The position numbers were made by a program, and so were the translations under genes. A DNA stretch of 62,291 nucleotides, the filler included, from Globobulimina sp. (lineage: Eukaryota), in assembly GCA_003354225.1 (NCBI GenBank). It is 6 parts of 6 records of this genome, joined end to end, with 100 filler letters (N's around TTAATTAATTAA, not from the genome) between each part and the next. Parts side by side here need not be neighbours in the genome. Positions count along the whole stretch, not along the records: positions 20,996 to 31,327 come from PIVH01000025.1; 5 more parts are not named here. One strand, written 5' to 3'. How positions within the stretch are numbered: position 1 is the stretch's first letter; every line of letters begins with the position of its first letter. Below are positions 13,918 to 58,331 of this stretch, piece after piece. The notes below the pieces were generated by a model. The model was given only the letters and a program-made list of their open reading frames with translations. It had not been told where the DNA came from and ran no database searches.

Positions 13918-16900
13918 TCTTTGTCGCTCACAATAATGGCTATATAATTAGCCAAATCGTCATAAAACTAATCTTATTTTTATCTCTCTCGCCATCAATA
14001 TTTGTCTTTCCTTTTTTCCAACATTTTTTTCATCACTTTTTACTCTTTTCGATCTCCTATGCTTTATTTTTATTTTTTATTCTCTCACTCTCTATGAATT
14101 TGTTCTTGATTGCTATGACCCCAACTTTCTGTGCCAATAATTTGATGAGTAAACAATTTGATTTATTCATACAAATTAATAATATGCATACAACTTTTAA
14201 TTTTAAATCTAATATATTTGCATCAGAACTGATTTCTCACCAAAAAAAAATCCAACTGCTTCACAACCTCTCCTTGCAATTTGAGACTCGCCAAAAGTAT
14301 AACAATTCTCAGATCCAAACCAAACAGACCAATCGCTATTTTACTCAGTCCAAAACAAGTCATTCTGTACATAATTATTTCAATCATTATCGACATCTAA
14401 TCAAAACGCAATGTGTCTCTGGTTATATGATTAGTACAAAAAAACACAAACATACGCCTGAACTGTATAAATTCATCGAGAAGCACCAATATCGGCTGCG
14501 GAAATACTATAAACACATTAAGATCATAATGGACAAATCGCTCCGATGGATTACAATGCGAATGCCACAACACAGATACCACCCAATAAAACACTACATT
14601 GTCTGCCAATTCCCGAAACAAATTAAACTTCGATTCAAGAAAGTGCCATACAACAACGAGAGTGTTGAAAAGACTCCGTACCAACAGCTGCATGCTTTCA
14701 GTAAAAGCCCAAGTAAGGTTTTGAAACTTCACGCATTTATACTCAAAAACGATTATGTTGTGAACGAGCCGGTGCTGCAGCAGTCAGTTAAACATAACAA
14801 ATATCATATAAAATGGTTTGTGCCTACAGATAAAAATGTGAGATGGATCCAAAATCATTGGGATGCTACGCACTTTGAATTAAATATGAAACTACACACT
14901 TTAAATAGAAACAATTGGATAAACAATCAAAAAAACAACGCAATAATATCACTTAACCAGATTTACAAATTTGCAATCAATAATTATAAGACACAAAATC
15001 CGAAACTGCGACAATATAAAAACTATTTGATTAATAAAACCATACAGCAACACACAACAAATACTAAAAATGAAAAGTCCGATATTCCACAAACCATTTT
15101 GAGATACCCGTTCATGCAAATCTATGCTCCAAACGTTGAGCCTCTCACCACCACCAAAATAAAAATAAAGAACCTCACCATTGGCTTCCTGAACATAAAT
15201 GGAAAGGCCAAGACCAAAATAAATCAGATGCACCCTTATATGCAGCAGCTTGTAATACATCACAAGTTGGACATAATACTATTGATTGATACACGAAGAG
15301 TGCACAGACCCGATTGGAATCTGCCTGGCTATAAACTAATAGTCCATAAATCCCCTGTAACGTCAAACAACCCCAAGAATGTTGGTGGTATATTGATTTA
15401 TCACAAAATGAATCTGAAAAACAAAATAAAACTAATAAAAAAGACCAGAGGGCACAACACCGCCTGGATAGCGGTAGACAGCGTAAACGGCACCAAACCA
15501 ACCTACATAGCAGTGAATTATGCCCGTACTCACAAATCAGATAATGCCAAACGCAGTGCTGCATTCTATCAGACTCTAACAGATGATATCCATAAATATA
15601 AAACATGCTGCAATGATATGTATGTAATCGGCGACTTTAATGCCCGAATGGGTGCCATGACCATGGATATTGCCAAAAATGCGCATTATAAGTATATGAA
15701 GGCACTGCTTGACGCCACCAAACTAAAAATAGCTAATCCGCAGTTTGCCCCGCAATTCCTAACCTGCCTCGCAAAGGGCGCCAGAAATAATGGTGGCTCC
15801 ATAATTGACTATGTCATAACGGAGAGATTGGATACCATCAAATCAATGCAAGTTGACACACATCCTGTTTTTATGGACCATCGACCAGTGATCTTTACCC
15901 TTAATAATACTGACTGTCAAACGGATGTGATTGATAAACATTTTATATTACGACAGTATGAACCCAATGATGCGCTGATAAAATCACATTATAACATCCT
16001 AAAAAACAGATCGCGACACCTCCAGAAGTTTGCCGCCAATACGAAATTCTACCAAAGTGAGCCGGACAGAGAATACATTTCAAATATAACGTCAATAACT
16101 GCCATCTACATATTACATCTGGCCACCATTAAAGCCTTTGGAATCGTTGATTTTGACTCTGCCAATAATTGGACGAATATAACATCAAAGCAGGTCTCCT
16201 TAAACATAAAACAGAGACTTTTCATGAATACTAATACGAACACAAATGAGATGCATAATTTAATAGTTGAAGCTGAAAAAGAATTTGAACTGAATAAACA
16301 ACATAAACTGACCCAGAATACCATCCGTTTTAATAATCTAAACCATTCTAATAAATTAAAAACGTTCAAGACGTACAATAAAAACAAAGATTACGTCGTT
16401 GACGAACCCTTCTTGACGTATAAAAATAAAATAATGGATAAAAACACGGCGCTGCAACAATTCTTTGGGTCCATTTGTGGCCCAATGGATGACCCAATAA
16501 TTAATGATAAACTGCTTGATATTAATACCTTTAATAATAAATTGAACAATCACGTCAAGAATGACTTGATTTTCATCCCTCACAAACCTAAAAAAGAGAA
16601 TGATGGCTCCACTGTGGACGTGACGCCACCCATTGCAATCACTGAAAATCTGCTTCCCTCCCACGATGACGAGCAGTCTGCGGATGCACTAACACCGCAC
16701 TTTGACCCCAGCTTTTTACCTCCCACCCAACCAATATTGAACCAGCTATATAGTTTGGAGCATAATGAAAGTGATAGTGATGACGATGATGATGTCATAC
16801 TAAATATCCAACGCCAAACACCTGGATATTTACCAGAACGTAGTATCCAACAAGAAAATGAGGAGAAGAAGGAGTGTGAAGATATACCAAACCCCAAAGC

Positions 16901-19900
16901 TAGCAAATTTAAATCGATTGAAATCGCAATAAAACAGGCAAATCCTAACAGTGCCCCGGGCTATGATGGAATAAAAACAATACATCTTAAAACAAATTCG
17001 GTCCTAATAAACGAAATCCTGTGCACCCTCTATAATGTCTGGAATAGCACATATTTCATTCCATATTACTTCCGGTTGGGTTCCATAATCCCGATACTAA
17101 AAACGCCGAATGGTTGCACCCCAAATCAATACCGGCCCATAACTCTCCTACCAATAATATTTAAGGCATATGAACGGTTGGTGCTGTGGGAAATGTGCAT
17201 ACAGCACAAATTCAGAGCAAATCTACATATTTTACAAGGTGGCAACCGCTCAAGAAGAGGGGTGCCGGAACAGATAGGAGCACTAAACTTGATTGCAGAG
17301 ACTGCAAAGATGCGTGAGATCCCATTGTACTGTGCGCTTTTGGACATACGTAAGGCCTTTGATACAGTGTGGAGAAAGGGCCTCATATTCAAATTACACA
17401 CACACTTTAATATTCCCATCCATATATGCAAAATAATAAAGGCAATATACAATAATTCGCATGCTGCAATTCGTGATATCCCGTTCATTTCTAATAAATT
17501 TGTATTGCACAATGGTGTGTTGCAGGGCTCTGTACTATCCCCAGTATTGTATGCTGCATTCCTCAATGATATGATATATACGCTCCAGGCCTCTGAAAAT
17601 GGCGCCTTTTCGCCAGATCCCAATAAAAAGATAGCGTGCATCTTCTATGCGGATGATATAATCTTGACAGCGAATAAAATATCTCACCTTCACAAATCAA
17701 TAAAAATCTGTGAGCGGCACAGCAAACTATGGAACTACCAATTTAATGATAAAAAATGTATGACCATGATTTACAACGATGACTCAATAAACACAAATAA
17801 CATTGACACATACAACATAAACGACATAATTCTAATAAACCACGAGTACCATGCAACCGATGCTATACACCATGGTAAACCCGCGCCGATGATACTGACA
17901 CAAAAACCGATAAATGGCCAGATAATGGCGTTGGACATATATAACCAAACCAGAGCATATAATAAAGAGGAGATACCCCCCAATCACCTTAAACAGTTTC
18001 TGAGCCATGTAAGTTTCTATGGCGATATTGCCAATAAACCGTTTCCGATCATGTGGAATAACATGCGCTATGATCGCAGTTACAGCCCGTCTGTGATGCA
18101 CCATAAGTTACGTCTAAACGGCAAACGACTATGCTGCACAACATATATGAGATACTTAGGTGCCATGCTGTGCAGCTATGACGCCACGAACTTAGTCTCC
18201 ACTGAATATACTAACAAACACTTTCTAAAAAAGCTTGACAATAAAGCAAGAATTCTAAACACATTGGATTTTAATCATGATTATATTTCCCTCGACGACA
18301 AAATCCGAATCCTCAAGACATTTTATTTAGTATATACTGAGATCTTTGCCCAAGTCTTGGACAGTGATGCAATAAACCTCACAGAAGCCAATCAGAAACA
18401 ACTAAATGCAATCCGCAGACAGACAAATATCAAACACTTTGTCCCTAAACAACTATATCTGTGGGCTGGAATACCCACTCCCTTTGAACGATGGGTATCA
18501 TTGAAACTGGTCTTTTATTGGAAATTATTACATATATCGAATGTTTCCTTAATGCATAAATGGGCCCAATTGTCCCATATCCACCATCATAAACTATATA
18601 AACAATACGCGGAGTTGAAGACAAAATGGTTGCCAATAGTAACCAACATAGTTGACGATGAGGTCCAGATGACCGATCCCTTTGATATAGTCAATGAACC
18701 ACATGAACTAAGACCAATTGTAATAACGGCGCAACATAAACACATACTTAATACATTGAACAAATATCATCCTTTGAAAATACTAAAACACATAACAAGT
18801 GATTATAAACCAATGAATATGTACGAAGTGACTGAGTTAGCGGATTATGTGAAACCACCAATGATTGAACCATACCGTGCGTTGTTTTATAATTTCAACC
18901 AAAATGATCCATACTGCAATCTTTGCTGTAATAACATCAATAAACCATTGGAGGTACACCTTGCTGTCCTCTGTCCAATCCTAAATGATCTAAGACAAGA
19001 ATATTGGTATCATGCAAGCTTTACCTTCGCCAAAAATGGATCAGAGATAAATAAAGTCCATAACCAACTGTATATGCAACGACTCATTGAAATGTGTCGC
19101 AATGTCAATGTCCATAAATCGCAATTCTGGAAAATCCTTTGTGGTGCCAATATTTATGAAACTGAATCAAATGAATTTGTATATAAACATAAACCAATAA
19201 ATATAAACGTGAATAAATACACTTTGTACAGAAATTTAATATCCCAGACTCACCGATGGATTTACAACATATACCGTCTAAATCAAAATACTTTGAATTT
19301 GAGAAGAATGAGAAACAAACACATCACAGACCCGAGCAAAATGCCATTATATCACACCCGCAATAGAAACATCAGAGAATGGAATGCAGCCAAGCACAGA
19401 CTGGAGAATAATGACCTTATAATAGCCACCGATTCGTCGCATGACCCAATTACCAACACCACTGGAATAGGTGTATTCATCTTAGACAGAAATAGGGTCC
19501 ATTGCTTTGCTCAACCAATTGGTGCCCAAACCAACCATTTTGGTGAGCTGTTCGCGATACACAAATCTGAGTTTCTTATAAAATATTGCAAAATAAATAC
19601 TGATAATCGACGTAAGATAATATTTACGGACTCGTTATATAATTTCGTACCACTAATCACAACCCCCCGAAACATAAATAAATTAGCACATTCGAACCTA
19701 TTTATCAACACACAAAAGTACATAAAAAGAAGCCAGAGTATATTGTGGAAAGTCAAATCACATACTAAACCAAAACAGCAACCCTTTAATAACGTGGCTG
19801 ATAAACTAGCAGAAATTGGAAGAATGCATCCCAATAATTCTAATTATCTGACTGTTAACTTCAACTCTGTGCAATATGCTAAATACCAAGCATTTGAATA

Positions 19901-19991
19901 CAACGATGGTATCTCCTTTGAGACCATCAACAACCTCGCCGGGATGTTCCAGCAATCGGTGAGTATGGAGCCAGACTTACTCCCTGGCTGA
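13914..19991 (+). CDS. LINE ORF2 polyprotein: unknown N-terminal domain, APE endonuclease, reverse transcriptase, CCHC finger, RNase H
   Basis: APE: IGFLNING, VIGDFNA, IIDY, MDHRPV. RT: SAPGYDGI, YRPITLL, LLDIRKAFDTV, GVLQGSVLSP, YADD (17646-17657), RYLG. CNLC...HLAVLC. RNase H: ATDSS, GEL, FTDS, KVKSH, VADKLA. Confidence 0.95.
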   Translation: MIFVAHNNGYIISQIVIKLILFLSLSPSIFVFPFFQHFFHHFLLFSISYALFLFFILSLSMNLFLIAMTPTFCANNLMSKQFDLFIQINNMHTTFNFKSNIFASELISHQKKIQLLHNLSLQFETRQKYNNSQIQTKQTNRYFTQSKTSHSVHNYFNHYRHLIKTQCVSGYMISTKKHKHTPELYKFIEKHQYRLRKYYKHIKIIMDKSLRWITMRMPQHRYHPIKHYIVCQFPKQIKLRFKKVPYNNESVEKTPYQQLHAFSKSPSKVLKLHAFILKNDYVVNEPVLQQSVKHNKYHIKWFVPTDKNVRWIQNHWDATHFELNMKLHTLNRNNWINNQKNNAIISLNQIYKFAINNYKTQNPKLRQYKNYLINKTIQQHTTNTKNEKSDIPQTILRYPFMQIYAPNVEPLTTTKIKIKNLTIGFLNINGKAKTKINQMHPYMQQLVIHHKLDIILLIDTRRVHRPDWNLPGYKLIVHKSPVTSNNPKNVGGILIYHKMNLKNKIKLIKKTRGHNTAWIAVDSVNGTKPTYIAVNYARTHKSDNAKRSAAFYQTLTDDIHKYKTCCNDMYVIGDFNARMGAMTMDIAKNAHYKYMKALLDATKLKIANPQFAPQFLTCLAKGARNNGGSIIDYVITERLDTIKSMQVDTHPVFMDHRPVIFTLNNTDCQTDVIDKHFILRQYEPNDALIKSHYNILKNRSRHLQKFAANTKFYQSEPDREYISNITSITAIYILHLATIKAFGIVDFDSANNWTNITSKQVSLNIKQRLFMNTNTNTNEMHNLIVEAEKEFELNKQHKLTQNTIRFNNLNHSNKLKTFKTYNKNKDYVVDEPFLTYKNKIMDKNTALQQFFGSICGPMDDPIINDKLLDINTFNNKLNNHVKNDLIFIPHKPKKENDGSTVDVTPPIAITENLLPSHDDEQSADALTPHFDPSFLPPTQPILNQLYSLEHNESDSDDDDDVILNIQRQTPGYLPERSIQQENEEKKECEDIPNPKASKFKSIEIAIKQANPNSAPGYDGIKTIHLKTNSVLINEILCTLYNVWNSTYFIPYYFRLGSIIPILKTPNGCTPNQYRPITLLPIIFKAYERLVLWEMCIQHKFRANLHILQGGNRSRRGVPEQIGALNLIAETAKMREIPLYCALLDIRKAFDTVWRKGLIFKLHTHFNIPIHICKIIKAIYNNSHAAIRDIPFISNKFVLHNGVLQGSVLSPVLYAAFLNDMIYTLQASENGAFSPDPNKKIACIFYADDIILTANKISHLHKSIKICERHSKLWNYQFNDKKCMTMIYNDDSINTNNIDTYNINDIILINHEYHATDAIHHGKPAPMILTQKPINGQIMALDIYNQTRAYNKEEIPPNHLKQFLSHVSFYGDIANKPFPIMWNNMRYDRSYSPSVMHHKLRLNGKRLCCTTYMRYLGAMLCSYDATNLVSTEYTNKHFLKKLDNKARILNTLDFNHDYISLDDKIRILKTFYLVYTEIFAQVLDSDAINLTEANQKQLNAIRRQTNIKHFVPKQLYLWAGIPTPFERWVSLKLVFYWKLLHISNVSLMHKWAQLSHIHHHKLYKQYAELKTKWLPIVTNIVDDEVQMTDPFDIVNEPHELRPIVITAQHKHILNTLNKYHPLKILKHITSDYKPMNMYEVTELADYVKPPMIEPYRALFYNFNQNDPYCNLCCNNINKPLEVHLAVLCPILNDLRQEYWYHASFTFAKNGSEINKVHNQLYMQRLIEMCRNVNVHKSQFWKILCGANIYETESNEFVYKHKPININVNKYTLYRNLISQTHRWIYNIYRLNQNTLNLRRMRNKHITDPSKMPLYHTRNRNIREWNAAKHRLENNDLIIATDSSHDPITNTTGIGVFILDRNRVHCFAQPIGAQTNHFGELFAIHKSEFLIKYCKINTDNRRKIIFTDSLYNFVPLITTPRNINKLAHSNLFINTQKYIKRSQSILWKVKSHTKPKQQPFNNVADKLAEIGRMHPNNSNYLTVNFNSVQYAKYQAFEYNDGISFETINNLAGMFQQSVSMEPDLLPG

Positions 19992-20895: not shown

Positions 20896-20995
20896 NNNNN
20901 NNNNNNNNNNNNNNNNNNNNNNNNNNNNNNNNNNNNNNNTTAATTAATTAANNNNNNNNNNNNNNNNNNNNNNNNNNNNNNNNNNNNNNNNNNNN
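20896..20995. other. Artificial contig linker
   Basis: N44-TTAATTAATTAA-N44. Confidence 0.99.
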
Positions 20996-21051
20996 AATAT
21001 CCACAGAGTATGTGACTCATCCAGACTGTGTAGTATATTTTCGTTTTTAAT

Positions 21052-22071
21052 TTGATTGCAAAAATATACAGTTATAATTATAACACCAAGAAGCAATTCA
21101 AACAATACAATATCCGAACCGATTTTATTTGCACTGAAAAATTACATAAACACATTCAAAAAAATAAAAAATTAAACAATTTAATGCATCAAATATCACA
21201 TAAATTAACATCGTCTGCAAATAATATAATAAAAGAATATGCTGCGAGCGAAGATTGTAAAATTAATATAATGTGTTGCAGAGTATCTTTCTATCATTCT
21301 TTAATTGAAAGCAAAAGTGAGAGCGGCGCAATTAAATGTCGATTTGCAAAGAATTCATTGACTCCTGAATTTTGGAAAGATTCAGTGGACAATAAAACAT
21401 ATATCGAGACAGAAGAGGTTTATGTAGATGTCGCAAAAGCATTCCCATTGACAGCCGATGAAATAAATTCAGCAGAAAAAATTGCAAACAAATTGTTTAA
21501 AATGGTGTCAGAACAGAAATTAGACAGCAATTCATATCATATTGATCCAGGCAAATTAAAAATATTTCTGGGAGCTAGGTATTTGTGGACCGCACTTCAT
21601 CGAATGAATAGAGAATCATTTCGTTATAACCACGGTGTTCGGACAGATTGTGATTCATTAGATATTATATCAGAGATTAAAACAATTTTACTTCCATTAA
21701 TTGAAAAATATGCAAATTTACCACATGGCTGGATAAATGGTGTTGCTTTAAACTTATACAAGGAACTTAATGGTTTGGCGAACCATATGGATGAATTGGA
21801 GCGTTTTTGTTCACCCATAGTTACATTATCATTGTTTAACGATTGTAGAATAACGTTTGGAGCAAAATTACATTCCAAAACAGATGCTGAATTTTATATG
21901 AATTTGGAACAAAATGCATTGACTACATTGGGACCTAAGATACAAGAAAAAATAACACATACAGTCAGAGATATGGACGTGCCAAAAAAGAGGGCTGTAT
22001 TTATATTCAGACGCTTCAGAAGTGAATTAATTAAAGAAGCAGATAGAATGAAAACATTATCAAAAAAATGA
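21052..22071 (+). CDS. AlkB-like 2OG-Fe(II) dioxygenase; 5' end uncertain
   Basis: NGVALNLY...NHMDE...PIVTLSL...ITFG...ITHTVR...KRAVFIFRR matches the NxY, HxD, H, RxxxxxR pattern of the AlkB family. Confidence 0.8.
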   Translation: MIAKIYSYNYNTKKQFKQYNIRTDFICTEKLHKHIQKNKKLNNLMHQISHKLTSSANNIIKEYAASEDCKINIMCCRVSFYHSLIESKSESGAIKCRFAKNSLTPEFWKDSVDNKTYIETEEVYVDVAKAFPLTADEINSAEKIANKLFKMVSEQKLDSNSYHIDPGKLKIFLGARYLWTALHRMNRESFRYNHGVRTDCDSLDIISEIKTILLPLIEKYANLPHGWINGVALNLYKELNGLANHMDELERFCSPIVTLSLFNDCRITFGAKLHSKTDAEFYMNLEQNALTTLGPKIQEKITHTVRDMDVPKKRAVFIFRRFRSELIKEADRMKTLSKK

Positions 22072-22241
22072 AATGCCATTTTTGTAAATAATTTTGTTTC
22101 AATTGTAAATGAAATGACGTTTGTTTTGTTTTTGCGTAATGAAAAATAAGTTCTTAGTCTTAGACAAAAAAAACTTTTCCTCGTTTCATATCATGGCGTT
22201 GTTACAGCTGACCATCAATATCCAACAACTTTGTTACAACG

Positions 22242-24956
22242 TTGCGTATTATACGATTCATAATATGGAAGATTCATAATTTGTTATTCACATTGTATAT
22301 TCGGAAAATGCAGATATGGATATTGCAAACTACAGCTGCTACAGCACGAGATCCAATGAAAGTACCGCATCATTGCTCGTATATCAAAGCATGTTTATCA
22401 AAATGTTCTTCTGATATTGAACTATCATCTGGATCTATTGTAGGTGCCGCATTAATTTCAGGGCAAACAAGTACTACAAATTATCGATCAAAATGTGACC
22501 GCTTAACTTCTGAGTGGCTCGCTCCATTACAATATACGAATGCATTTTTAATACAAGAATTTATGCAATTTAATGAGTCTTTATCACATAAAGCAAAAAC
22601 ACCAAAGACATTCAATTTAAGTCCGCAAACTTTAAATTGGTGTTTAAAACAATTAGGATCGACATTTACAGCCTGGAACATCAAATACAATGGAGGAAAC
22701 AACATCAATATCAAATGTTTAGCAATACATAAAAGTTGGGCACAATTAATATTTCTCAATTTAAAACACATAGAATGCAGAAGTTGGACCCTCAAAGCAA
22801 TCGAAAATATATCTGATCTCGACACAATATCATGCATCCAATACACTGATAAAAGCTTTAATGAATTTAAGCAACATTTAGGCAAAGGGTTGAAAAAAAC
22901 AAAATCAGGAAAGAAACGAAAAGCAAAAACAATAGCTGACAACAATAACGACAATAATTCAAATAAAAAATATTTAGTATTACAAAAAAAAAAAATGAGA
23001 ATTGATAAATATATTACAAAGCGATCATCGACTTCCTTAAATATGAAACAACCGTTACGTAATGTCTGGGATATTAAACAGTTATATAAAGAGAGTCAAT
23101 GGATCATTACAAAAAGCAACGACCAAAAAGATAAAAACATAGACATTCGAGACCATAATTTAAGAATAAAAAAATATGTTGTGAAATCATTAAAATTATG
23201 TGATAAACGAAGCATGAACGCAAAAAACGATACAGATTGTATAATTTTGCGAAATATTACGGATATATTTTATACAAAACCGAACTTATTAAGTACAGTA
23301 ATTGAGTTATTACACCGAGATCCATCATATGTCCATTTAGAAAGCGAAATAGCGTTAATAATGGGTTATATTTCTTTAGAATCCTGTCCAGACTGCATGG
23401 AAACAGTTGATATCAAATACACACCAAGTTAAGACAAACAATAATTTTCTTTTATTAATATGTTAAAACAAACAATAACTTTGTTAGGTTCTGGGCATAA
23501 ATACCATTGTTCGAATAAAAAATGTATGAAAACACCGTGGACAGTTTGGAAAAAATCATCAATCAGACCACATCGATCATTTTATGCTCATTTAAAATTT
23601 TTGTATTTGTCAGCAGGCGGAGATTTACAAAAGAATTGGCAGTTTACATTGGACAAGAATGAATCTGAAATCTCACGGTTCACTTCAATATTATTGCAAT
23701 CCATAGAAATCTATGAGTCAATATATAGAATAAAGACAGGTGGCAGTGAGAACGGAGAAAGAATAAAATCATGTAATGATCATAAAGTGTGCGGTGGTAA
23801 AAGAAAATATGGAAAAGGAGAAAATAAAACGAAAAAAATTAAAATTCAAGGTGCTACTGACACCCGTGGTATTATTGCGTTAGATAACGTCGCTAATGAA
23901 AGAAAGCCACAGGTTCATCATACAGCACAGCTACAAAATCATCCGAAAACATACATTTCTACTGATCAGGCCAACGTATTTATATCTGTACCAAATATCG
24001 ATGGTCAAAATTATGCACACGGATCTTGCAATCATTCCGGTGTTATCAATATGAAAACAGCAATTATTCATCATTTCACTAATCCAGAAACTGGAGATGA
24101 TTCACAAGGCATTGAGCATACATTTGGTAAATGGGCGCAACACTATGCTTTTAAAGGACAAATGTTAAGAAATCATGATTTATTTATTCGGAGATTAAAA
24201 CAATTCGTTTGTGTCAGCAACAGAACGTCCAATTTTCAACCGCAAGTTTTCATTTTGTTAAATCATATTTTAACTCAAGTAAAACCTCCTAATTCTGCAG
24301 ATATTGCATTACTGCCAACAGAAGATTTTTCTGATAAATATGAAGTTGAATATATATTTGATTCCCGTTCAATTGATTCAAATGTAAGAATGTATCGAGT
24401 AAAATATAAAAATATGAATTGGGACAATGCACAATGGTTAAATGTAAACGATTTTGATGATATAGATTTTGTTCAGCAATATGAATCACTGCCAATTGAT
24501 CAAAAGCAAAAAATATTAACAAAATGTCAAAAATTAATTGCAAATCATGTTGAAAAATGTAACACACGCCAGTGTATTGCCGGGTTAAATCGGCAATATA
24601 TCCAGAATATGTGCGTAAATGCAAACATTTTTAAGAATGGCACTGCACTATATCGTGATTTAGCGTTGGTGAAAAGTGTATTAAAAGGTACAGGTTCATC
24701 TACAGTTAATGGACAGCTTGTATCACTAAAACATGTCGTTTCTGAAGTGAAATCGCAAACGGTTATTAGTGAAAAATATAACTGTATTTTTAAATTTAAT
24801 ATCAATTCAGGACATATTATTCAATATTCATGTACATGTGACTATTTTCAAAAACAAATACAAAGAAGTAAAAATACAAGTGAAGAGGATTTAATATCGT
24901 TTTGTAAACATTTGGTTTGTACTGCTTTAGATCGTGTATTGTCAGTTAAGCATTAA
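22242..24956 (+). CDS. Spliced fusion protein (intron 23428-23487): ASCH-like region, Zn ribbon, Merlin/IS1595(ISXO2)-like DDE transposase, chromodomain, SWIM finger; 5' start uncertain
   Basis: A GTTAAG...TTAG phase-1 intron joins ORFs 22242 and 23460 in frame and unites CPDC with HCSNKKC. Transposase: CNDHKVCGGKRKYGKG (D at 23778), ISTDQ (D at 23964), HGSCNHS, FTNPETG..SQGIE (E at 24114). Chromo: YEVEYIFDSR...YRVKY...QWL. SWIM: CTC...CKH. ASCH: CLAIHKSWAQLIFLNLKHIECRSW and SGSIVGAALI. Confidence 0.78.
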
Positions 24957-25131
24957 AATTAATTATATCGTCTGACTCGTTTTATATCATCACTACATAA
25001 AATCGTGATATTCGTAATAAATACATCTCTTTCCACTTCACTCAGACAGGTAATGTAATAAATATGTCATTATATTTCTTTTGTGATTAAACATACATTA
25101 CAAACAAAATAAATGAGGCTACAAGATGAAG

Positions 25132-25190
25132 ATTGAGTTATATTTTATTGAGTTATTTGGTGGATTTTATTGAGTTATATTTTACGTCAT
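25132..25190 (+). promoter_or_regulatory. Three ATTGAGTTAT direct repeats plus an ACGTCAT motif upstream of the NTPase gene
   Basis: ATTGAGTTAT at 25132, 25147 and 25169; ACGTCAT at 25184-25190; ATG at 25221. Confidence 0.45.
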
Positions 25191-25220
25191 ATTTTTGTTT
25201 ATTCAATACTAATTTTTACG

Positions 25221-28132
25221 ATGTCGATATTAGGAAAAAGAAACCATAGTGAAAGCGAGTCTGTTTTAGGCAGCGAAAACAAAAAACGGAGATTAAATGA
25301 AGCTGCAGTTGGTGTTCAAGGATCGCATTCCAATCATAATAATTCCAAAGAAAGTGATAAAGTAGAAAGCGGAGAAGAGAAAAGTAATGTGGAGCAATCA
25401 AAAATTTCGTTCAAAGAAATAAAGGAATTATTAATTGAATATAATGAAAGTTATACATTTACTCAAAGTATAATAAATGTCGATGACTTACAAATTGAAC
25501 AAATTAAAATTAGTTAAGTTATTTAGCATAATATTAATTTGAAATATTAACACAACACAAATACTAAGTTTCGAAAGTGAATGATTATTTACAGCAAGAT
25601 AAAGCGATATTTGATGATGTTATTTTACGTTTAGCAATTAGTATTTATAGACCATGTCCATTAACGTGGAACTTATGTGCAAGATGTGTTATTAGGGATA
25701 TTAAATCACATTGGATTTGGGGGTTAAAGGCGAATGGTAAAGAAAAGGCGAAATATAAAGATTTTACGAAAACGAAAACGTTTAAAATAGCCAAAGGTTT
25801 ATCATTAATAAAGAATATTGATATGGAATTAGCTGTAAGTTCGATACAAGATTTAACAAAACATGCATCTGGGCCAGCAAGAGTAAATATTTCAAGTGAC
25901 AGATTTGAACCAGTTTGTTGGAGTGAAGCTATATCTGGTCCGAGCGGCTCTGGTAAATTCCACGGTACTTCCAAAGTATTAACAACAATGCATAATGTAT
26001 GATATCTGCTTTCCAATATATATATAAATAAATATATGATAATTTACGCTTATATATAGACAGATATAAAATCCAAGATCTTATTAAAATCATTAGGACG
26101 ATGGAATGAAATGATATCACCGATTACAAAAAATAGTATATCACACAGTAAATTTGCGCAAAATGTTATGATGTCTATGGGGATTAGTTTTGTTTGTATG
26201 GATGAACTAGGACCATTTAAAAAAGTATTTGAATTAAAACGTGAAAGAGATAAAGTATTTGCACAAACAGAAGGACTGGGTAATTTATTAAATGCATGGC
26301 AAAATGCAGATATTAAAAGAGAATTTGTAGGTGACGAATATAACAGCGATATTCCAAAAGCATGGGTTAATACATTGTTTACCACACAAACAGAAAATAT
26401 GAAAGATTTTATTGAAGCGTCTGGTAGCAGTGGACTAAGTTGTCGTAGTGCATATTGGAAAAGTGGATTACAACAATTCAAATGTGATGGATATAATATA
26501 AATCAACACAGTATTGGTTCCGTTGAAATATTTAGTTTTAATGTTTTATTGGATCATTTATCATGGTCTATTCGAATTAATACTGGTATTCCGACAATGT
26601 TGACTGAATTTCAAGATTATGTTGATATTCAATTTGATCCAATGATTGAAATCTTTGTGAATAGAATAAAATTATTATTATATCAAGCAAAGAAATTTCA
26701 AATTGAAAAGGGATTTAGTACAATGATGTTACCGTCACTTATTCAAAAATATGGTGATTTATTTATTAGATTTGCAGGCAATTTAAAAATTACTGAATAT
26801 TGGGTGAATAAAATGTTTGATGGATATGAACCTTCATCATCAAAAATGAAACAACAATTATTACAAAGTGTAAATTTAACTTATACGATTACAGATACAG
26901 CAATTATAAAAAGTGCATTTTATTTAATTTTCGGTATAAGTTTACAGAATTATTTGGATTTATCAAATGAACAATTTTTTAATTTCCCGTTATCAGATGA
27001 ATGTATGCAAATAGATAAAAAAATAGATAAAAAAATAAATTCAAGTAACAATAATATTAACGATGAAAATGAAAGATTACCGAATCAATTCGTTGAGTTA
27101 AGTGAAAATGTTAGTAACATTAATAACAATCATAACAATTCGAATAATAACGAATCAAATAGTATGTGTTGGAGTGATGATGAAGATGAGTTTGGTGGTG
27201 ATTTAATGGATTTATGTGCAAGTCAATCTTCATTACCTGCTCAAATTCCATCTGAGCAATTAATACAATCATCGGATGTGTTTAGTGATTTTGTATTACA
27301 ATGGGGTGCATGTATTAATTTGACAGCAGGATGTGAGTTAAAATTAGGAACATTTAAACAGATTGAAAAAATAGCAGATCAAAATGGAATCCAAGTTTTT
27401 AAGTCGTTATCGCAAAATTTACATGAATTTGGATTATGTGATTTGATTCGGACCAATATTGGAGGATGTATTTGGTTGTTAAAAAAAAACAAATTGGACA
27501 ATGATATAAATAATTTGACAGATGAACAATATACAGGTTTAGCATCATTAAAAATCAGTCATAAACGGTGGAATTTATCCGTCGACCGACCTACGAGTTG
27601 GAAATTAAGAATAGATAAGGAAGAGAAAAATAAAGCGGCAAATATTAATTGGAGTGAAAAATGTATTGGGTTTTTAGAAAAAGATGATGTGCAACATATT
27701 ATTTGCCAGAAAATAGATAATTTAACATCGCAACTACCACGAATTTTACCATTGAAATATTCAAAACAATGGGTTTTAGAAATGAATGCAGAACAAATGA
27801 GATTAGTGGAGAGTGTAGGAAGTGAGGAAGACTGTAAGGATATTATAACACATTTTAAGCATTATTTAATTGATGATACAGTGTTTTTTAAAAAGCATGC
27901 AGAAAGAATAAAGAAAAAAACTCAAGATCAATATAATGCGTTATTACTGCATACTAGAATTCCTTCTGGTGCTTTTGATAGTTTTATAATGGTTGAAAAA
28001 GAAGCAGATCAAAACACAAGATTTCCGATACAACGTTCAGGCCGATTAAAATTAACAAAAGATTTCTTGCCACCAATTCCAATTCAAAAATATTTGGATA
28101 CGGTTAACAGTAAAAATGATAAAAAAAACTAA
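25221..28132 (+). CDS. Spliced P-loop NTPase, probably an SF3/D5-like helicase (introns ~25513-25568 and ~25997-26059; splice sites not unique)
   Basis: In-phase GT-AG introns join ORFs 25170, 25577 and 26111. Walker A GPSGSGK at 25937-25957 (followed by F rather than S/T), Walker B FVCMDE shortly after, N-terminal basic KRRL patch. Confidence 0.58.
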
Positions 28133-28252
28133 AAATAAAATATCCATTGTATCTATTTAAACGCGCGGCGAGTTGTTATTTACCTCGATATTATATTTAA
28201 ATATTGAATATTCAACAAATGAATTAAATTTAAAATGTATGCGGTTATGATG

Positions 28253-28861
28253 TTAGTCGTTATTATGATCTAACATATTCTGTAATAAACGTCCAAAACC
28301 TTCAACAAAATGTTCATTCGAAAATATATGGCGGTTAATGCCTCTTTCATTTGCCATCCATGTTGATAATGAATCAGATACTGAGCCTACAGCTGAATCA
28401 GATGCTGAGCCTGCTGGTGATTCCGAATGGATTAGTTCTTTTCTCTCATGTAATGGTTTTGATTCCGATTCCGATTCAGATTCCGATTCTGATTCCGATT
28501 CTGATTCAGATGAGGTAAATGGATATTCGAACACTAGCGGATGATCAGCATATTCTTGTTCAGATGAATTATCGTTTACATACACAGTACCACCATATTG
28601 TGAATGTAACATATATGATTGAGCAACGTTAACGCATTTGTCGTATATTGAATTCCGAATTAGTGGAAACCGCTGATATTGCGTGAATGATGCATCGATT
28701 GATAGCAAAACTGGTTCATCTTTGAACTGTTCGACTCGCGCGTCATTCCAATAAACCTTTTTATTACGAAATATGATTGTTCCACTAATTAACGTTGGAG
28801 TGGGTCCATTAATGTCTATATCCACTATTATTTGTCTCTCTATTTTGCATTGCATAGACAT
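28253..28861 (-). CDS. Hypothetical protein with a (SE)n low-complexity tract
   Basis: 202-aa ATG-started ORF with an ATGACGT motif 40 nt upstream; no recognisable domain. Confidence 0.55.
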   Translation of the reverse strand: MSMQCKIERQIIVDIDINGPTPTLISGTIIFRNKKVYWNDARVEQFKDEPVLLSIDASFTQYQRFPLIRNSIYDKCVNVAQSYMLHSQYGGTVYVNDNSSEQEYADHPLVFEYPFTSSESESESESESESESESKPLHERKELIHSESPAGSASDSAVGSVSDSLSTWMANERGINRHIFSNEHFVEGFGRLLQNMLDHNND

Positions 28862-28956
28862 GATAAGAACTCGAATGAGATAATATTTTTGTATTTTCTA
28901 ACGTCATTATGACATAATATAAATATAAATACTTAAACAAAAGCAAAAGGTACTTA

Positions 28957-30345
28957 TTAAAAAAAATTAATATCTTGGAATCGTTTGAAAGATGGACATT
29001 TATTACATTGATATGTGAATTTTCCGTTATATTTGAAATATTGATGTGAAGAGTGTTTAACTAATAATAATGATGGGTGATGTTTGCAATTCGCAGTGAC
29101 ATTTGTTGTAAAATACAGTTTATATTTTATGTCATGGTTCGATGTTTCTACATTATTATCACTAAATATATATCTGTAGTTATCGTTGATGCATAATTTG
29201 AATTTAATTATTGCTTGTTCTAACTGTTCAATTTCAAAGATTTCCATTTGAATATTTGCAAAGCTTCTTGGATATTGAACTTGACTGTTGATGGATTGAT
29301 ATGATATGTTGCAGCAATCTTTGTTTAAACAACGTCTTTCCGACCATTGTAAACTATTTATTTCACTATTAAAGGTAAATATTGCTATCACATTAGCTGA
29401 AGCTGTGCAATTAATACATATATCATTTGATATGTTTACTTCTACGCATCTCACTTTAGTATTTGTTGCAGTTCCATGTTTCAAACGTTTTATCGTATTA
29501 CAGGATGTTTGTTGTCGTATATTTAGATTTGGTAACCATTTCTTGGTATTGGTGAAATTATCGACTTGATTCAATTTTATTTGTTCCAACAATGTCATAT
29601 ATGATTTATGTGCGGAAATCAATTTTTTTCTTGAAGATGGTTGACCATTTTTGATGCATTCGGCTAGCCTAAAATACTGGCATTTAGAATATACAGATGC
29701 ATCTATGTTTGATAACAACTGTAAAGATATTGATTGTGCATCCTGCATTTGTTTATTATATACTTCTTCGAATATACTGAATGATTGAAAAATGCTTTTA
29801 ATTTTTTTTATATCCAATAGCATTTTCTCAATATCATTATATATCACATTTTTATTAAAAATATGCAATGAAATTTTAAACTCTTTTACTGCAACGAAAC
29901 GGCTACTATCAAAAACGATAAATTGGTTGTTTGCAATTGTTTGTTGTTTGATACAATGTAATGATATATTCTTTGAATTGAACAAATTAGTTAGTTCATT
30001 AAGCATCAATGATACTATTTTTATAATATATTTGTCGCTATAACTTCTATTAAATATTTGTTCAATGTCTAAATATAATATACGTGGTGCATAAAGAAAT
30101 ACACTATAAAAACATCTTTGTTGAATATCAACTAAATTGTATAATGTATTATAATGGTTTATATCGTTGAACACAAGTAGTTTGAATTTAGACGGAGCAT
30201 ACTCATACGCTGTTATAAATGGCGTAGCTGCTTTATTATCTTGAATATATTTTTGAACAGATTTTCTTTCTGGATGTAGATGACTATGTAAAGGATAAAA
30301 AAACGATTTAACCTCCAACAAATTTAGCAACCCATCAAAGTCCAT
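28957..30345 (-). CDS. PrimPol/UL52-like archaeo-eukaryotic primase(-polymerase) with a C-terminal Cys/His finger
   Basis: Motif I PRILYLDIE (DxE), motif II FDSS...KISLHI (SxH), motif III IDASVYSKCQYFRLAECIK (cf. PrimPol DlgVYtknrnFRl..ssK); C-terminal CKHH...HSS...CNKC. Confidence 0.82.
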   Translation of the reverse strand: MDFDGLLNLLEVKSFFYPLHSHLHPERKSVQKYIQDNKAATPFITAYEYAPSKFKLLVFNDINHYNTLYNLVDIQQRCFYSVFLYAPRILYLDIEQIFNRSYSDKYIIKIVSLMLNELTNLFNSKNISLHCIKQQTIANNQFIVFDSSRFVAVKEFKISLHIFNKNVIYNDIEKMLLDIKKIKSIFQSFSIFEEVYNKQMQDAQSISLQLLSNIDASVYSKCQYFRLAECIKNGQPSSRKKLISAHKSYMTLLEQIKLNQVDNFTNTKKWLPNLNIRQQTSCNTIKRLKHGTATNTKVRCVEVNISNDICINCTASANVIAIFTFNSEINSLQWSERRCLNKDCCNISYQSINSQVQYPRSFANIQMEIFEIEQLEQAIIKFKLCINDNYRYIFSDNNVETSNHDIKYKLYFTTNVTANCKHHPSLLLVKHSSHQYFKYNGKFTYQCNKCPSFKRFQDINFF

Positions 30346-30436
30346 AGATCTCCGACGCTTTCTTACTACGAATATATTTAGTAATTATTTAGCACAAAAA
30401 AACAATCGATGTGTTTTGACGTAAGGAAAGCTTATT

Positions 30437-30928
30437 ATGATTCACACTATGGATCCGTTATTAATTAAATTAATCTCTTTGAAAAAAGAACGTGCGATTC
30501 AGATACGACAAATAAATGGATTACAACAAAATCTACAAACAAATGAAAAGACAACTCAACAAATAAGAAAGAGATATCTCAACACAATAAATATATTAAA
30601 AAGCAGAATTTCATTGTTTAAAAACGAAAAACTAATTTTAAAAAATGAGAATCAAACTTTAAAAAACGAAAATCAAACATTAAAAAATGAAAATCAAACT
30701 TTTAAATCAGTATACAACTCAGAATCATCACAAGAACAAACAAGCATTCTTATTACAGGTTGTACTCAAAGATCCGATGAAAATCCAGAAACAACATCTC
30801 AACGGGAATATCTACAAGACGCAGGAACATATCTTGAAGATGCAGATGGTGATTATGAACCAAAAACAGAACCATCTGAAACACCATCTGAAACACCAAG
30901 TTCACAAGCATCTGGGAATTTTCATTAA
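30437..30928 (+). CDS. Hypothetical coiled-coil protein with LKNENQT heptad repeats and an acidic tail
   Basis: 163-aa ORF divergent from the primase; three LKNENQT copies (21-nt repeats). Confidence 0.55.
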   Translation: MIHTMDPLLIKLISLKKERAIQIRQINGLQQNLQTNEKTTQQIRKRYLNTINILKSRISLFKNEKLILKNENQTLKNENQTLKNENQTFKSVYNSESSQEQTSILITGCTQRSDENPETTSQREYLQDAGTYLEDADGDYEPKTEPSETPSETPSSQASGNFH

Positions 30929-31044
30929 TTTTAATTATTTAAATATTTTGTTGTATGGTTAACTACAAAACAAAAACAACAGCCTTTTCCAATGTTTAAT
31001 TTCGATCTTTAATGTAATGTTAACTATCATGTACACTAAATATC

Positions 31045-31327
31045 AGTACACCATGTGAATATTCATAATATACTAAATATACTAAATATACAAAATATAC
31101 AAAATATACACAATATAAGTACACCATGTAAATATTCATAATATACTAAATATACCAAATATACAAAATATACACAATATCAGTACACACTGTAAATATG
31201 CATAATATACTAAATATACCAAATATACAAAATATACACAATATAAGTACACCATGTAACTATTCATAATATACTAAATATACCAAATATACAAAATATA
31301 CACAATATCAGTACACCATGTAAATAT
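31045..31327. repeat. Tandem 64-bp repeat built from ~9-bp AAATATAC(T/C/A) subunits; runs into the contig end
   Basis: AGTACAC unit starts at 31045, 31118, 31182, 31246 and 31310 (spacing 73, 64, 64, 64). Confidence 0.92.
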
Positions 31328-31427
31328 NNNNNNNNNNNNNNNNNNNNNNNNNNNNNNNNNNNNNNNNNNNNTTAATTAATTAANNNNNNNNNNNNNNNNN
31401 NNNNNNNNNNNNNNNNNNNNNNNNNNN
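31328..31427. other. Artificial contig linker
   Basis: N44-TTAATTAATTAA-N44. Confidence 0.99.
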
Positions 31428-33604: not shown

Positions 33605-33780
33605 TCTACAGCTACAGTTTGAGCTGTTGTGTATATTATAAATTTTTATATTTGTGCATATTATAAATTCTTACAGCTACAGTTTGAGCTGACGTGTATA
33701 TTTTTGAACGTGTGACCACACCTTGACAGGTGCTCGGAAATTGCTGAACATTCACTACGAAAACGACAACTAATAACACA

Positions 33781-36700
33781 ATGTTACCTGTACCTATTAG
33801 AGGATATGAATCTCTAACTTTTATATTTAACAGAGTTAAATCGTACTGGTGTAAAGCAGAAAACCGAGAATCAATTATCCCTAAAGAAGTCACACTCAAT
33901 TTAGACGAAAGTTTAGACAATGTAGATAATGACAATGCGGTAATAAATTGCGCAAATGGTCTTAATGTACCTGATCAGGAGTTCGTAAGCATGGATAATA
34001 AAATGGAACGATTGGAAGAACAAATAAAAAGGTTTAAAAGTAAAATTGCTTCATATAAATCAGATTTGAGAAAGAAACTCCAATCGACCGGCATTACAGA
34101 ACTGAATGCTATTAATGGACAAAATAAATTTGACAATTGTTCTTGTTGTACTAATGTATTGAAATGTGAAAGTGAATTGTGTGACGGTATTCAAAGTGTA
34201 CCACCTATAAATGCATACCCAGAGGTAAAATATTATGCCCCAAAACCAATTGAAGTATCGGGTAGCAAAGTCGGCTCGTTGGGAATCAAAGTAAAGGATA
34301 CAACGGTAATGTCACTGGCATTATTTTCGAACAGAGAACAGAGAAGTATAAATAAAGTGTTGAGAAAAGATAATAGAGTAATAACAAAAGGGTCGCAATC
34401 ACCAGCAACTACTCAGGGAAGTAGGAAGCATTCGTCGAAAATAAAGCGTAAATGGAAGGCAATAATGGCAGAACATCTAGCAAAATCGACGGAGACCCTT
34501 GAACCAACAAAAGTAATGCCAATTCCCAAATACAGGGAAGGGAAGTTGTATCCTGAAAATGTTCTAAGCGCAGTGGAGGGTACTGATTCGACACCATTAT
34601 TAACGGATCATTACTCTCTACTGGCAGAGAACTATTGGAAGGAGCGAACTCCCGAAGTACCAAAACGAGTAGATGGGTTACCCGAAGTTGCTTCTCAGTA
34701 TTGCTTTAAACAGCCGAGAATATACCCGGCGCAACATCAGGTAAGAAAAAATGGAATTGAATACCAATACAACCTAATGAGAATAATCGCCGACCTTAAA
34801 CAAAGTGAAGTACAAGGATTTGTGGATGCACGAGAACAAAAAGAGAAATATGAGAGAAGATTGCGACAAGATGGCGGACAATCATCAAATGAATGGCCAA
34901 TAGTGCCATTACATTATAATCGTGCACCAATCGATGTATTATGCGACAAAACATCTTTAAAGAAAACGGCACCCACAAGTGCACTTCATGCACATGAACT
35001 ACAACTGGGTAACATTTTAGACTTAGAAATGAACGAACTTCCTGTCACATATCTAGAGTATGACGAACAAATGCCATGTTTTCAAATCCCCACTATGTTA
35101 AGTACTGCGTCACATATTTCATTCATGCAAAAGTCAGTTTTCTTTAAGACAGGAGGCGATTTAGAAATGCTCTGTTGCTGTAAACATATCAAAGTAAAAG
35201 GGCATTTAAAACAGTATGCTGTATATGGTCATTCATTAATACGGTTTAATATCGGGTCTATGATATATGAACATGCAGTACATATCATAGATGACGATAG
35301 CGAATTGCCTCTTGTAATATTGGGACTGGACTTTTGGACACTGAATCCGCCAATCATAAAACGCCAAGCGGGCCATATCATTTTGGGAGAAAGTAAAATT
35401 CAGCTAGGACCCCCGCCAGAACCTTTCAGTGGTTTCGTACGATTAATAGAAAAAATAACGGTTCAGCAAGGAGGAATAAAAAAGGATGTTTTGGGTGAAT
35501 TGTATTCATATGAAGGACATATAATACCCGATGAGGGAACCGAAATATTTTTAGAACCAATGGAAGGACGTCGATCAAAAATAGACATACAAGTTATGCC
35601 AATACTAACAACAGTACTAAAAGGTGGGCTAGTAGCTATGCCTCTTCTCAACCGAACATCACGGCAGCGTAAATTTAAGGCAGAGACCTGTGTAGGTAGG
35701 GCTTATCAACGTGAGTCTTGTGTTTTAGCTGATACATTTGACATTGGAGTAGCACTATCGGCTGTAGTGAAATTGGAAGCAAATGAGAAACTAACATCAG
35801 ATGAAGAAAGTTGTAACCAGAAGTTACTATCATTATTTATGATAAGTGAACAAAATAGAGAGAAAGAACGATTACACAGCCGTGTGTTGCAATGTACAAC
35901 AAACTGCAATGTACCGATGTTAAAGCCGAACCAACAATCATACGGATTAGTCACAAGACTAGACAGTCCTACTCAGATCAGAGTAGAGAAAACTGCCGAC
36001 CTACCACTTAAAACACGCCAACGATCGCACAGTATAGATGTTTCGATTCTGGCATTGCCAGAATTTAAAAATGTCGATGGCGTTCTTACTAGCCACACCG
36101 ATTTTGAGAACAAAGCTGAACCACTGACAAATTATTTGCCAGAAGGGGTCGACGATGGAGAAGATTTATTAGGAGAAATCGACGCAGATTCACCCTTAGA
36201 ATACGAACCACCGAAGGGAAAAGGAGAGCTAGGAGGAGTAGCTGATCCACAAGATGAATGGGGCGAAGATGATTCAACTAAGAAAGTCAGTCAAATGGTA
36301 CAAATTGACGACGGACTACCAGAACATCAAAAAGAAATATTACAGAAACTAATAGACAGAAATAGTGACGCATTTGCACGGACAAAAAAGGATTTGACAA
36401 TAACACCATTAATAGAACATGAAATACCTTTACTCACAGATGTACCAACTAAATTGCCAGCATACAAACTACCGCATCGTTACCATGATTGGCTGAGAGC
36501 CGAAATTAAAAATCTCTTGAGTTTGGGGCTGATTAGCCACTCCACCGCTCCATATAGTGCTCCGGTCGTAATTGTCAACAAAAAGGGTACTTCTAAGCTA
36601 AGGCTCTGTGTCGACTACAGGCTTTTAAATTCTATCACCTTAAAAAATGCCTTTCCTTTGCCCACGTGCGAATCAGTGTTTCCAATTTTGAATGGAAAAC

Positions 36701-58326: not shown

Positions 58327-58331
58327 AGCGA

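Follow-up and report, generated by a model that had tools for sequence, protein, structure and literature searches.

A PrimPol-clade primase, a putative P-loop ATPase and an IS1595-superfamily-derived protein encoded side by side in foraminifer-like DNA

The window, a stretch of 62,291 bases from the Globobulimina sp. assembly GCA_003354225.1, consists of six contigs, and the third of these (positions 20996-31327, ~10.3 kb; record PIVH01000025.1), hereafter contig 3, encodes a very divergent primase, a putative P-loop ATPase and a protein derived from a DDE transposase. This arrangement of a transposase, a primase and a possible helicase side by side could represent a new kind of self-replicating mobile element. 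The reading we prefer, tentatively and with somewhat less than even confidence, is that contig 3 is nuclear DNA of a foraminifer-like protist which holds a low-copy integrated replicative element or its remnant. A more specific version is rather doubtful: an undescribed foraminiferal class that unites, behind a common TGACGT promoter box, a chromodomain-bearing IS1595-type transposase, a PrimPol-clade primase(-polymerase) and a DUF3987-like AAA+ helicase, whose family has until now been associated with phages and with mobile elements of prokaryotes. The work follows up a sequence-only reading of the same DNA, which had proposed a self-synthesizing DNA transposon or virus-like element with a Merlin-like transposase, a PrimPol-like primase and a helicase like those of superfamily 3 (SF3). 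Papers are cited by PMC accession.

Primase, ATPase and transposase-derived genes

The 462-residue protein encoded on the minus strand (Table 1) is confirmed, from its predicted structure and motifs, as an archaeo-eukaryotic primase (AEP) of the PrimPol/herpes-pox clade, with which it has both the AEP fold and the catalytic motifs in common; as a primase, the PrimPol-like primase-polymerase called earlier is thus upheld. The AlphaFold2 (AF2) model, built on an alignment of 15 sequences, has a predicted local distance difference test (pLDDT) score of 83, and a Foldseek search of the PDB ranks human PrimPol (E 1.2e-5), herpes simplex virus UL52 and pox D5/E5 first among 26 matches at E≤0.001. 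With VIA, the model aligns to human PrimPol over 219-222 residues (Z 18.0, root-mean-square deviation 3.6), against Z-scores of ~13 for the D5/E5 AEP domains, ~12 for UL52, ~11.8 for the PrimPol of African swine fever virus (ASFV) and ~7 for PriS. In BFVD, the best matches are primases of pithovirus, orpheovirus, ASFV and other giant viruses (E 1.8e-12 to ~1e-9). Residues D93 (in L-D-x-D/E), S159, H161, D215, Y219 and R226 are invariant in 15/15 aligned sequences and position 95 is D or E, which together make up the three AEP catalytic motifs DxD/E, SxH and D..Y...R. The AEP domain spans residues 1-267, and the C-terminal part forms a beta-rich Cys/His domain, in which C420 is invariant (6/6) and C447 nearly invariant among the 15 sequences; by eye, this domain takes the position of the UL52-type (CHC2) zinc finger.

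This primase is a very divergent new branch of the PrimPol clade. The possibility, raised in the sequence-only reading, that it is the host PrimPol ortholog finds no recognizable similarity behind it: phmmer with the protein and a search with the 15-sequence profile returned no match at E≤10 in the PDB, which includes human PrimPol and other solved members of the clade, and neither query matched a Pfam family, Herpes_UL52 included. By sequence, therefore, the protein is not detectably a cellular PrimPol, although in a fast-evolving lineage it may still be an ortholog by descent. It belongs to a small family of its own, of which an exhaustive HMMER search recovered 25 cluster representatives at E≤0.001, 21 of them at E≤1e-10, with a best identity of 44%, and identity to the window protein among 14 aligned members is 23-42%. 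None of the 19 clusters looked up has a functional name, the sole name being "hypothetical protein"; the branch is new whether or not the three genes move as a unit. The relatives are encoded on contigs of 0.8-29 kb in NCBI, ENA, Logan and JGI data, with one weak match on a 452-kb contig of a metagenome-assembled genome. Two groups of relatives, P0006/P0028 and P0014/P0032/P0033, consist of two or three sequences at least 90% identical to each other on different contigs, which could be recent copies or one species sampled repeatedly.

The ATPase gene ends 825 nt from the primase gene and encodes a candidate helicase. An SF3 assignment, as in the sequence-only reading, has no support: there is no SF3 match in Pfam, NCBIfam or PHROGs, and what the protein offers is a Walker B-like motif and a non-canonical Walker A, GPSGSGKF, which has no S/T after the lysine. 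Nothing relevant was found for it in Pfam (no PF13148 match of either exon at E≤0.1), NCBIfam or PHROGs, two protein searches limited to proteins of near length returned no homologue, and tblastn against phages gave chance matches only (E≥3). Exon 3 modeled alone with AF2, using no alignment, gave an unusable model (pLDDT 35.9).

The lead to a helicase family comes from the ESM Atlas, in which 24 of the 30 listed matches to the first 330 residues of exon 3 (Walker A excluded) are DUF3987 clusters (0.91-0.94, 190-198 shared features). DUF3987 is described as a predicted replicative helicase of the AAA+ class, distantly related to MCM, that phages and mobile elements often encode beside an AEP or DnaG primase or, in the case of AEP, fused to it (PMC4889955, PMC5862659); PMC4889955 reports that helicases of this type were not found in eukaryotic viruses. 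Our DUF3987 test profile was narrow, with 7 actinophage sequences (Corndog through PF13148, and 6 of 71 tblastn records). Used in hmmsearch, it scored -0.4 bits, which 12 of 1000 shuffles reached. Used in hhalign, it aligned over a 13-column P-loop segment only, scoring 19.9 against a shuffle maximum of 17.8 (0/100 shuffles), and in global mode it scored 5.9, a value that 8 of 100 shuffles reached. Six of the 7 phage sequences have G instead of S/T directly after GK, at which position the window protein has F (GKF). We therefore treat the helicase as a lead and not as a result. A likeness of the motifs after Walker B to the phage alignment, seen by eye and without statistical support, was not counted.

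The third protein, of ~862 residues, likely holds an IS1595/Merlin-like DDE core, to judge from sub-threshold profile matches of its two homologues and from ESM Atlas neighbours. A word-based search found two relatives, P0001 (63% identity) and P0002 (56%), and the triad D107, D169 and E219 is invariant in all three sequences. Its spacing of 62 and 50 residues falls inside the ~50-70 aa reported between Merlin DDE blocks (PMC8101967). P0001 comes from the EukProt protein set for Bolivina argentea and aligns to the spliced window protein from residue 250 on (613 columns, 61% identity, 5 gaps). The window open reading frame (ORF) has no match to PF12762 (DDE_Tnp_IS1595) at E≤10; its homologues do (P0002 at E 0.002 and P0001 at E 0.063, both under the 27-bit cut-off), and P0002 also matches IS1595 in NCBIfam (E 0.012, under the curated cut-off). 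In the ESM Atlas, the listed matches to residues 1-285 are nearly all IS1595/ISXO2 clusters (scores 0.92-0.94, 190-199 shared features). IS1595 is the sole transposase family lead for this core.

Further domains surround the core. Exon 1 encodes an N-terminal region without assigned function, a basic linker resembling a nuclear localization signal (NLS) and the first CxxC of a zinc ribbon. This zinc-ribbon-like CxxC...CxxxxC lies before the DDE core and is interrupted by the intron; its support from tools is a zinc-finger match of P0001 in NCBIfam (E 0.025). Exon 2 adds a chromodomain, with which weak HP1 matches in the PDB agree, and a SWIM-like finger. Merlins are described with terminal inverted repeats (TIRs) of 24-462 bp with GG termini, target-site duplications (TSDs) of 8-9 bp and proteins of 181-445 aa, and the zinc finger is reported as missing from both Merlins and IS1016 (PMC8101967). 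The gene is therefore IS1595-superfamily-derived, yet no typical Merlin: of the Merlin/IS1595 transposase proposed earlier, the IS1595-superfamily DDE identity is moderately supported, and the typical Merlin is not, in view of the 862-aa length and the extra domains, whereas a Merlin is compact and essentially one transposase. TIRs and TSDs of the Merlin kind were not seen on contig 3, and the true ends may lie off the contig.

Even if no unit exists, this is a genuine IS1595/Merlin-superfamily gene in a foraminifer-like genome; it has a spliceosomal intron, a relative of it is expressed in Bolivina argentea, and its combination of a chromodomain and a SWIM-like finger is a new architecture. 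It bears on a question left open in PMC8101967, where the presence of Merlins in Rhizaria is called unclear.

As a separate observation on this protein, residues 148-184 of ORF 22242-23432 (22683-22793) match phrog_3193 (E 4e-5), a phage family of unassigned function, and this N-terminal part is missing from the Bolivina protein P0001. By eye, the segment resembles what we take to be an ASCH/PUA-like motif.

Introns, promoter box and the proposed element

The spliceosomal introns noted earlier hold up as three GT..AG introns of 56-63 nt on contig 3, with a G+C content of 18-20%. The intron of the transposase-derived gene is verified by P0001, whose alignment is gapless across the junction; the two in the ATPase gene are predicted from frame and stop codons. 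In contig 5 of the window, an apparent GT..AG intron of ~65 nt (45427-45493) was seen by eye between ORF 44905-45456 and the Kelch ORF 45598-46383; its length is comparable to that of the three introns of contig 3.

The common upstream motif also bore out. TGACGT occurs four times on contig 3, and 4/4 copies lie in the non-coding 14%, one per resolvable promoter spacer (simple binomial ~4e-4). The whole window has 25 copies against 21.6 expected, and none falls in eight 120-nt stretches upstream of ORFs in contig 5. The terminal tandem array likewise stands, with a period of 64 and 3.9 copies at 31076-31327. Elsewhere, TGACGT is found at 33690, 91 nt before the Ty3/gypsy ORF (33781-40359) of contig 4, and again past this ORF at 40821-40828, 41087 and 41518, once as the palindrome TGACGTCA; the region past the ORF may represent long terminal repeats.

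In the element that we propose, the PrimPol-clade primase and the neighboring P-loop ATPase would form a primase-helicase replication module, of the kind with which phages, integrative elements of prokaryotes and large DNA viruses of eukaryotes replicate their own DNA. The IS1595/Merlin-superfamily DDE protein would cut and join the element into chromosomes, and its chromodomain may direct insertion into marked chromatin, in the manner of chromoviruses and Mavericks; Maverick integrases are also known to bear a chromodomain. Transcription would be nuclear, from short promoters with the common TGACGT box, and the host would splice the transcripts. The primase fold and its catalytic residues, the DDE triad, the introns, the common box and the adjacency of the genes are observed, whereas the helicase function of the ATPase, joint action of the genes and movement of the unit are inferred. 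One unit is favored by the adjacency of primase and ATPase, the lead to a phage-type helicase, the common box, the intact catalytic residues and the terminal repeat. If the three genes do move as a unit, they would constitute a fourth recombinase/replicase pairing among eukaryotic DNA elements with replication initiators of their own, beside Polintons, Polinton-like viruses and Teratorn, and would place a phage-type primase-helicase module in a eukaryotic nucleus, which bears on module exchange between transposons and viruses.

Alternative readings

Nearly as likely as an integrated element is an ordinary nuclear locus with unrelated neighbors: a domesticated IS1595/Merlin-derived protein that may act on chromatin through its chromodomain and SWIM-like finger, a PrimPol native to the lineage and evolving fast, a demethylase of the ALKBH5 type and lineage-specific orphan genes. 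A series of observations weighs against one mobile unit, and those on TIRs and copy number, on the transposase-derived protein, on the primase, on the ALKBH5-like gene and on contig 5 speak for such a locus. The sequence-only reading had named TIRs with TSDs, elevated coverage and capsid genes as signs of an element to look for. Across five region pairs there are no TIRs on contig 3, each observed score being reached by 10-140 of 200 shuffles, and no TSD is visible on the contig. One sequencing run contains 99% of the contig's sampled words, and in it a single piece of 9568 nt covers 21538-31105 at a flat depth of 15.6; no further long piece of at least 80% identity is among those listed for this run, so that the contig looks single-copy, within the limit that Logan contigs merge identical copies. 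The terminal array has a summed depth of ~94, ~6 times that of the body. Pfam scans of nine ORFs on the contig found no capsid, polymerase or packaging gene, and with no DNA polymerase gene on these 10.3 kb the element would not be self-synthesizing in the Polinton/casposon sense, as the sequence-only reading had proposed it to be.

At two to three times the length reported for Merlin proteins, the transposase-derived protein combines several domains, is encoded by a gene with an intron and is 61% identical to an expressed protein of another foraminifer. Domestication fits a large protein with such a relative, as for the Merlins of other protists: in Stentor, Perkinsela and Symbiodinium, Merlins that lack TIRs are reported as domesticated (PMC8101967). 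Given its size, conservation and expression in another foraminifer, the protein could equally well be a domesticated gene. The nearest solved structure to the primase is a cellular enzyme, human PrimPol (Z 18, compared with 13 for viral enzymes), and the 25 relatives of the primase may simply represent orthologous genes of several foraminifera. An ALKBH5-like gene of cellular type stands on the same contig, and the earlier statement that no housekeeping genes are present was in this respect too strong. Contig 5 is equally gene-dense and close to contig 3 in codon use (r 0.94); r is nearly the same for the AT-rich bacterial contig (0.93), so that codon use does not discriminate between origins of contig 3.

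Two further points weigh against one unit. The ATPase family is unproven, with no library match, an hmmsearch score at noise level, a 13-column hhalign alignment and a Walker A without S/T, and only two relatives of the transposase-derived protein were found against 25 of the primase, in searches (word-based and exhaustive) that are not comparable in sensitivity. Taken as a whole, the lack of ends, the single-copy look, the domesticated-looking transposase, the cellular-type gene and the unproven ATPase count against the genes moving as one.

An ordinary locus, however, leaves several observations less easily accommodated. Not even a profile connects the sequences of the primase family to cellular PrimPol, and the family spans 23-42% identity across 14 members compared with the window protein. 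The ESM Atlas lead for the ATPase is a helicase family of phages and mobile elements, four promoters have a common box that is missing upstream of the contig 5 ORFs, and the DDE triad is intact in 3/3 sequences.

IMG/VR contained no relative in 5/5 scans (the primase alignment A2, P0021 and P0014, the transposase alignment A3, and the ATPase), JGI metagenome contigs contained none in two scans, and GTDB genome contigs none in two, the first of which used the bacterial response regulator of contig 1. The window's own proteins are missing from the protein collection searched, and hit counts in it are therefore uninformative on copy number in this genome. No RNA dataset was among the listed datasets that contain contig 3. 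In the run that contains contig 3, a second variant of the left end (21245-21664) has a 272-bp deletion (21245->21518) in the ALKBH5-like gene at a depth of 6.6 and a 127-nt stretch bearing 8 differences at a depth of 7.4; the variant is either an allele or a second, decaying copy.

We consider it improbable that two independent selfish or virus-derived pieces lie together here, namely a primase and ATPase module beside a separate IS1595/Merlin-type gene that landed there or was domesticated. Such an origin would agree with the known pairing of primases and ATPases in replication modules (PMC4889955, PMC5862659), with the position of the transposase gene on the far side of the ATPase gene and with a transposase family that looks much rarer than the primase family (2 against 25), although the searches behind these counts differ in sensitivity. 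It is at odds with the same TGACGT box preceding both the transposase gene and the replication genes, and with the lack of TIRs flanking the transposase gene by itself, for which the score of 20.0 compares with a mean of 20.9 in shuffles.

It is very unlikely that contig 3 stems from a large DNA virus of giant-virus-like or Polinton-like type, free or episomal in the sample, rather than from a host chromosome: its high AT content, densely packed genes, short spacers and recurring promoter box would suit such a virus, and the best BFVD matches of its primase are those of pithovirus, orpheovirus, ASFV and other giant viruses, but it has three GT..AG introns of 56-63 nt, one of them confirmed by a transcript-derived foraminiferal protein, no capsid, packaging ATPase or polymerase gene in the Pfam scans, no relative in IMG/VR, and separate primase and ATPase genes in place of a D5-type fusion.

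Known systems, remaining genes and the rest of the window

Of the systems compared, the modules of an AEP primase and a DUF3987- or D5-like protein in bacterial and archaeal phages, plasmids and integrative elements likewise have a primase gene next to a P-loop ATPase, and they follow the same principle, in which an integrating element encodes its own replication initiator. Contig 3 differs from them in being eukaryotic, with spliceosomal-type introns and NLS-like stretches, and its DUF3987 membership is putative. Teratorn, a piggyBac transposase fused with a herpesvirus (PMC5601938, PMC10175614), and the Polinton-like viruses share the concept of a DDE transposase or integrase that serves an element with its own primase and helicase (PMC5601938, PMC10175614, PMC6431247). 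The transposase of contig 3 is of another superfamily, and no capsid, polymerase or packaging genes lie within its 10.3 kb. Polintons/Mavericks and casposons are replicative DNA elements, as we propose for contig 3; their pPolB, rve integrase and Cas1 were not found in the Pfam scans of the nine ORFs. Within the PrimPol/UL52/D5 clade, the poxvirus D5 primase is fused to its helicase, and that of contig 3 is a separate gene. In the literature searched, for Merlin or DDE transposases together with a primase, a helicase or a chromodomain, we found no description of such an element, in which a Merlin/IS1595 transposase is coupled to a primase-helicase module, within the limit that the supplements of PMC8101967 (S2 Appendix, Rhizaria) might list related sequences.

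Table 1. Features of contig 3, in positions of the window
Feature	Position	Strand	Basis or remark
ALKBH5-like 2-oxoglutarate (2OG)-Fe(II) oxygenase gene	21184-22071	+	PF13532 E 7.1e-8; ORF open from TTG 21052, first ATG 21184
TGACGT box	22115-22120	+	upstream of transposase-derived gene
Transposase-derived gene, exon 1	22308-23427	+	ORF; spliced model open, 862 aa
Intron 1, 60 nt, GTTAAG...TTAG	23428-23487	+	alignment to P0001; in-frame stop inside
Transposase-derived gene, exon 2	23488-24956	+	DDE core, chromodomain, SWIM-like finger
DDE triad	D 23778-23780, D 23964-23966, E 24114-24116	+	alignment of 3 sequences
Chromodomain	24339-24485	+	Chromo PF00385 E 4.3e-4, under Pfam cut-off
SWIM-like CxC...CxH	24831-24911	+	pattern by eye
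TGACGT box	25184-25189	-	~35 nt upstream of ATPase ATG
Putative P-loop ATPase gene, helicase candidate, 930 aa	25221-28132	+	frames and junctions
ATPase exons	25221-25512, 25569-25996, 26060-28132	+	frames, stop codons
ATPase intron, 56 nt, GT..AG	25513-25568	+	frame and stop codons
Walker A-like GPSGSGKF, end of exon 2	25937-25957	+	no S/T after K
ATPase intron, 63 nt, GT..AG	25997-26059	+	frame and stop codons
Walker B-like FVCMDE, exon 3	26189-26206	+	~60 aa downstream of Walker A-like motif
Orphan ORF, 202 aa, acidic Ser/Glu/Asp repeat	28253-28861	-	ORF; 6-nt repeat at 28461-28511
TGACGT box	28901-28906	-	~40 nt upstream of 202-aa ORF
PrimPol-clade AEP primase gene, 462 aa, single exon	28957-30345	-	AF2 model, fold matches, motif alignment
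TGACGT box	30417-30422	+	91-nt divergent spacer between primase and coiled-coil genes
Coiled-coil ORF, 163 aa	30437-30928	+	heptad Leu repeat
Terminal tandem array, 64-nt unit x3.9	31058-31327	.	degenerate 9-nt subunits; contig breaks inside array

Contig 3 is filled by six genes, and each gene model is open with one terminal stop and compatible with the standard genetic code. The AlkB-like dioxygenase of the sequence-only reading is borne out and can be placed more exactly: by its sequence matches, it is of the ALKBH5 branch and of cellular type. Its PF13532 score is 33.3 against a cut-off of 31.2 bits, and phmmer against the PDB gives ALKBH5 at E 2.4e-13 over query residues 159-325, with HMD/HVD, THT/THC and RRAV aligned. 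The HxD...H and the 2OG-binding R...R residues are present. In the coiled-coil ORF, a 21-nt tandem DNA repeat at 30620-30706 gives rise to the heptad leucine zipper (LKNENQT x3), Pfam matches are weak (SOGA at 0.0021, bZIP_1 at 0.031), and the best PDB match is a short coiled-coil protein (E 0.17). TGACGT is a classic bZIP site, and we considered this ORF as a bZIP factor that binds the box, a role which these matches leave unsupported.

The six contigs of the window are 10,166-10,443 nt each, ordered from longest to shortest and separated by spacers in which the 12 bases TTAATTAATTAA stand between two runs of 44 N. The edges of contig 3 are genuine, with N spacers at 20896-20995 and 31328-31427. 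Its G+C content is 28-31%, and it has no DNA or protein similarity to the other five contigs. The assembly is mixed, with one bacterial contig and the remainder eukaryote-like. Contig 1 is the bacterial one and encodes a methyl-accepting chemotaxis protein (MCP), Hpt, a LuxR-type response regulator and a 2213-aa TIG-domain protein. Contig 5 is gene-dense and of eukaryote type (Kelch, fatty-acid hydroxylase, SPRY, 2'-5' RNA ligase), contig 4 is a Ty3/gypsy element, and contigs 2 and 6 are non-LTR retrotransposons with an endonuclease/reverse transcriptase ORF2 of ~2025-2060 aa; both domains were detected in the copy on contig 2, and the call for contig 6 follows from ORF layout alone. In these two non-LTR copies (10816-19991 and 52144-61424), ORF1 is unusually large (~1030 aa) and without a Pfam family.

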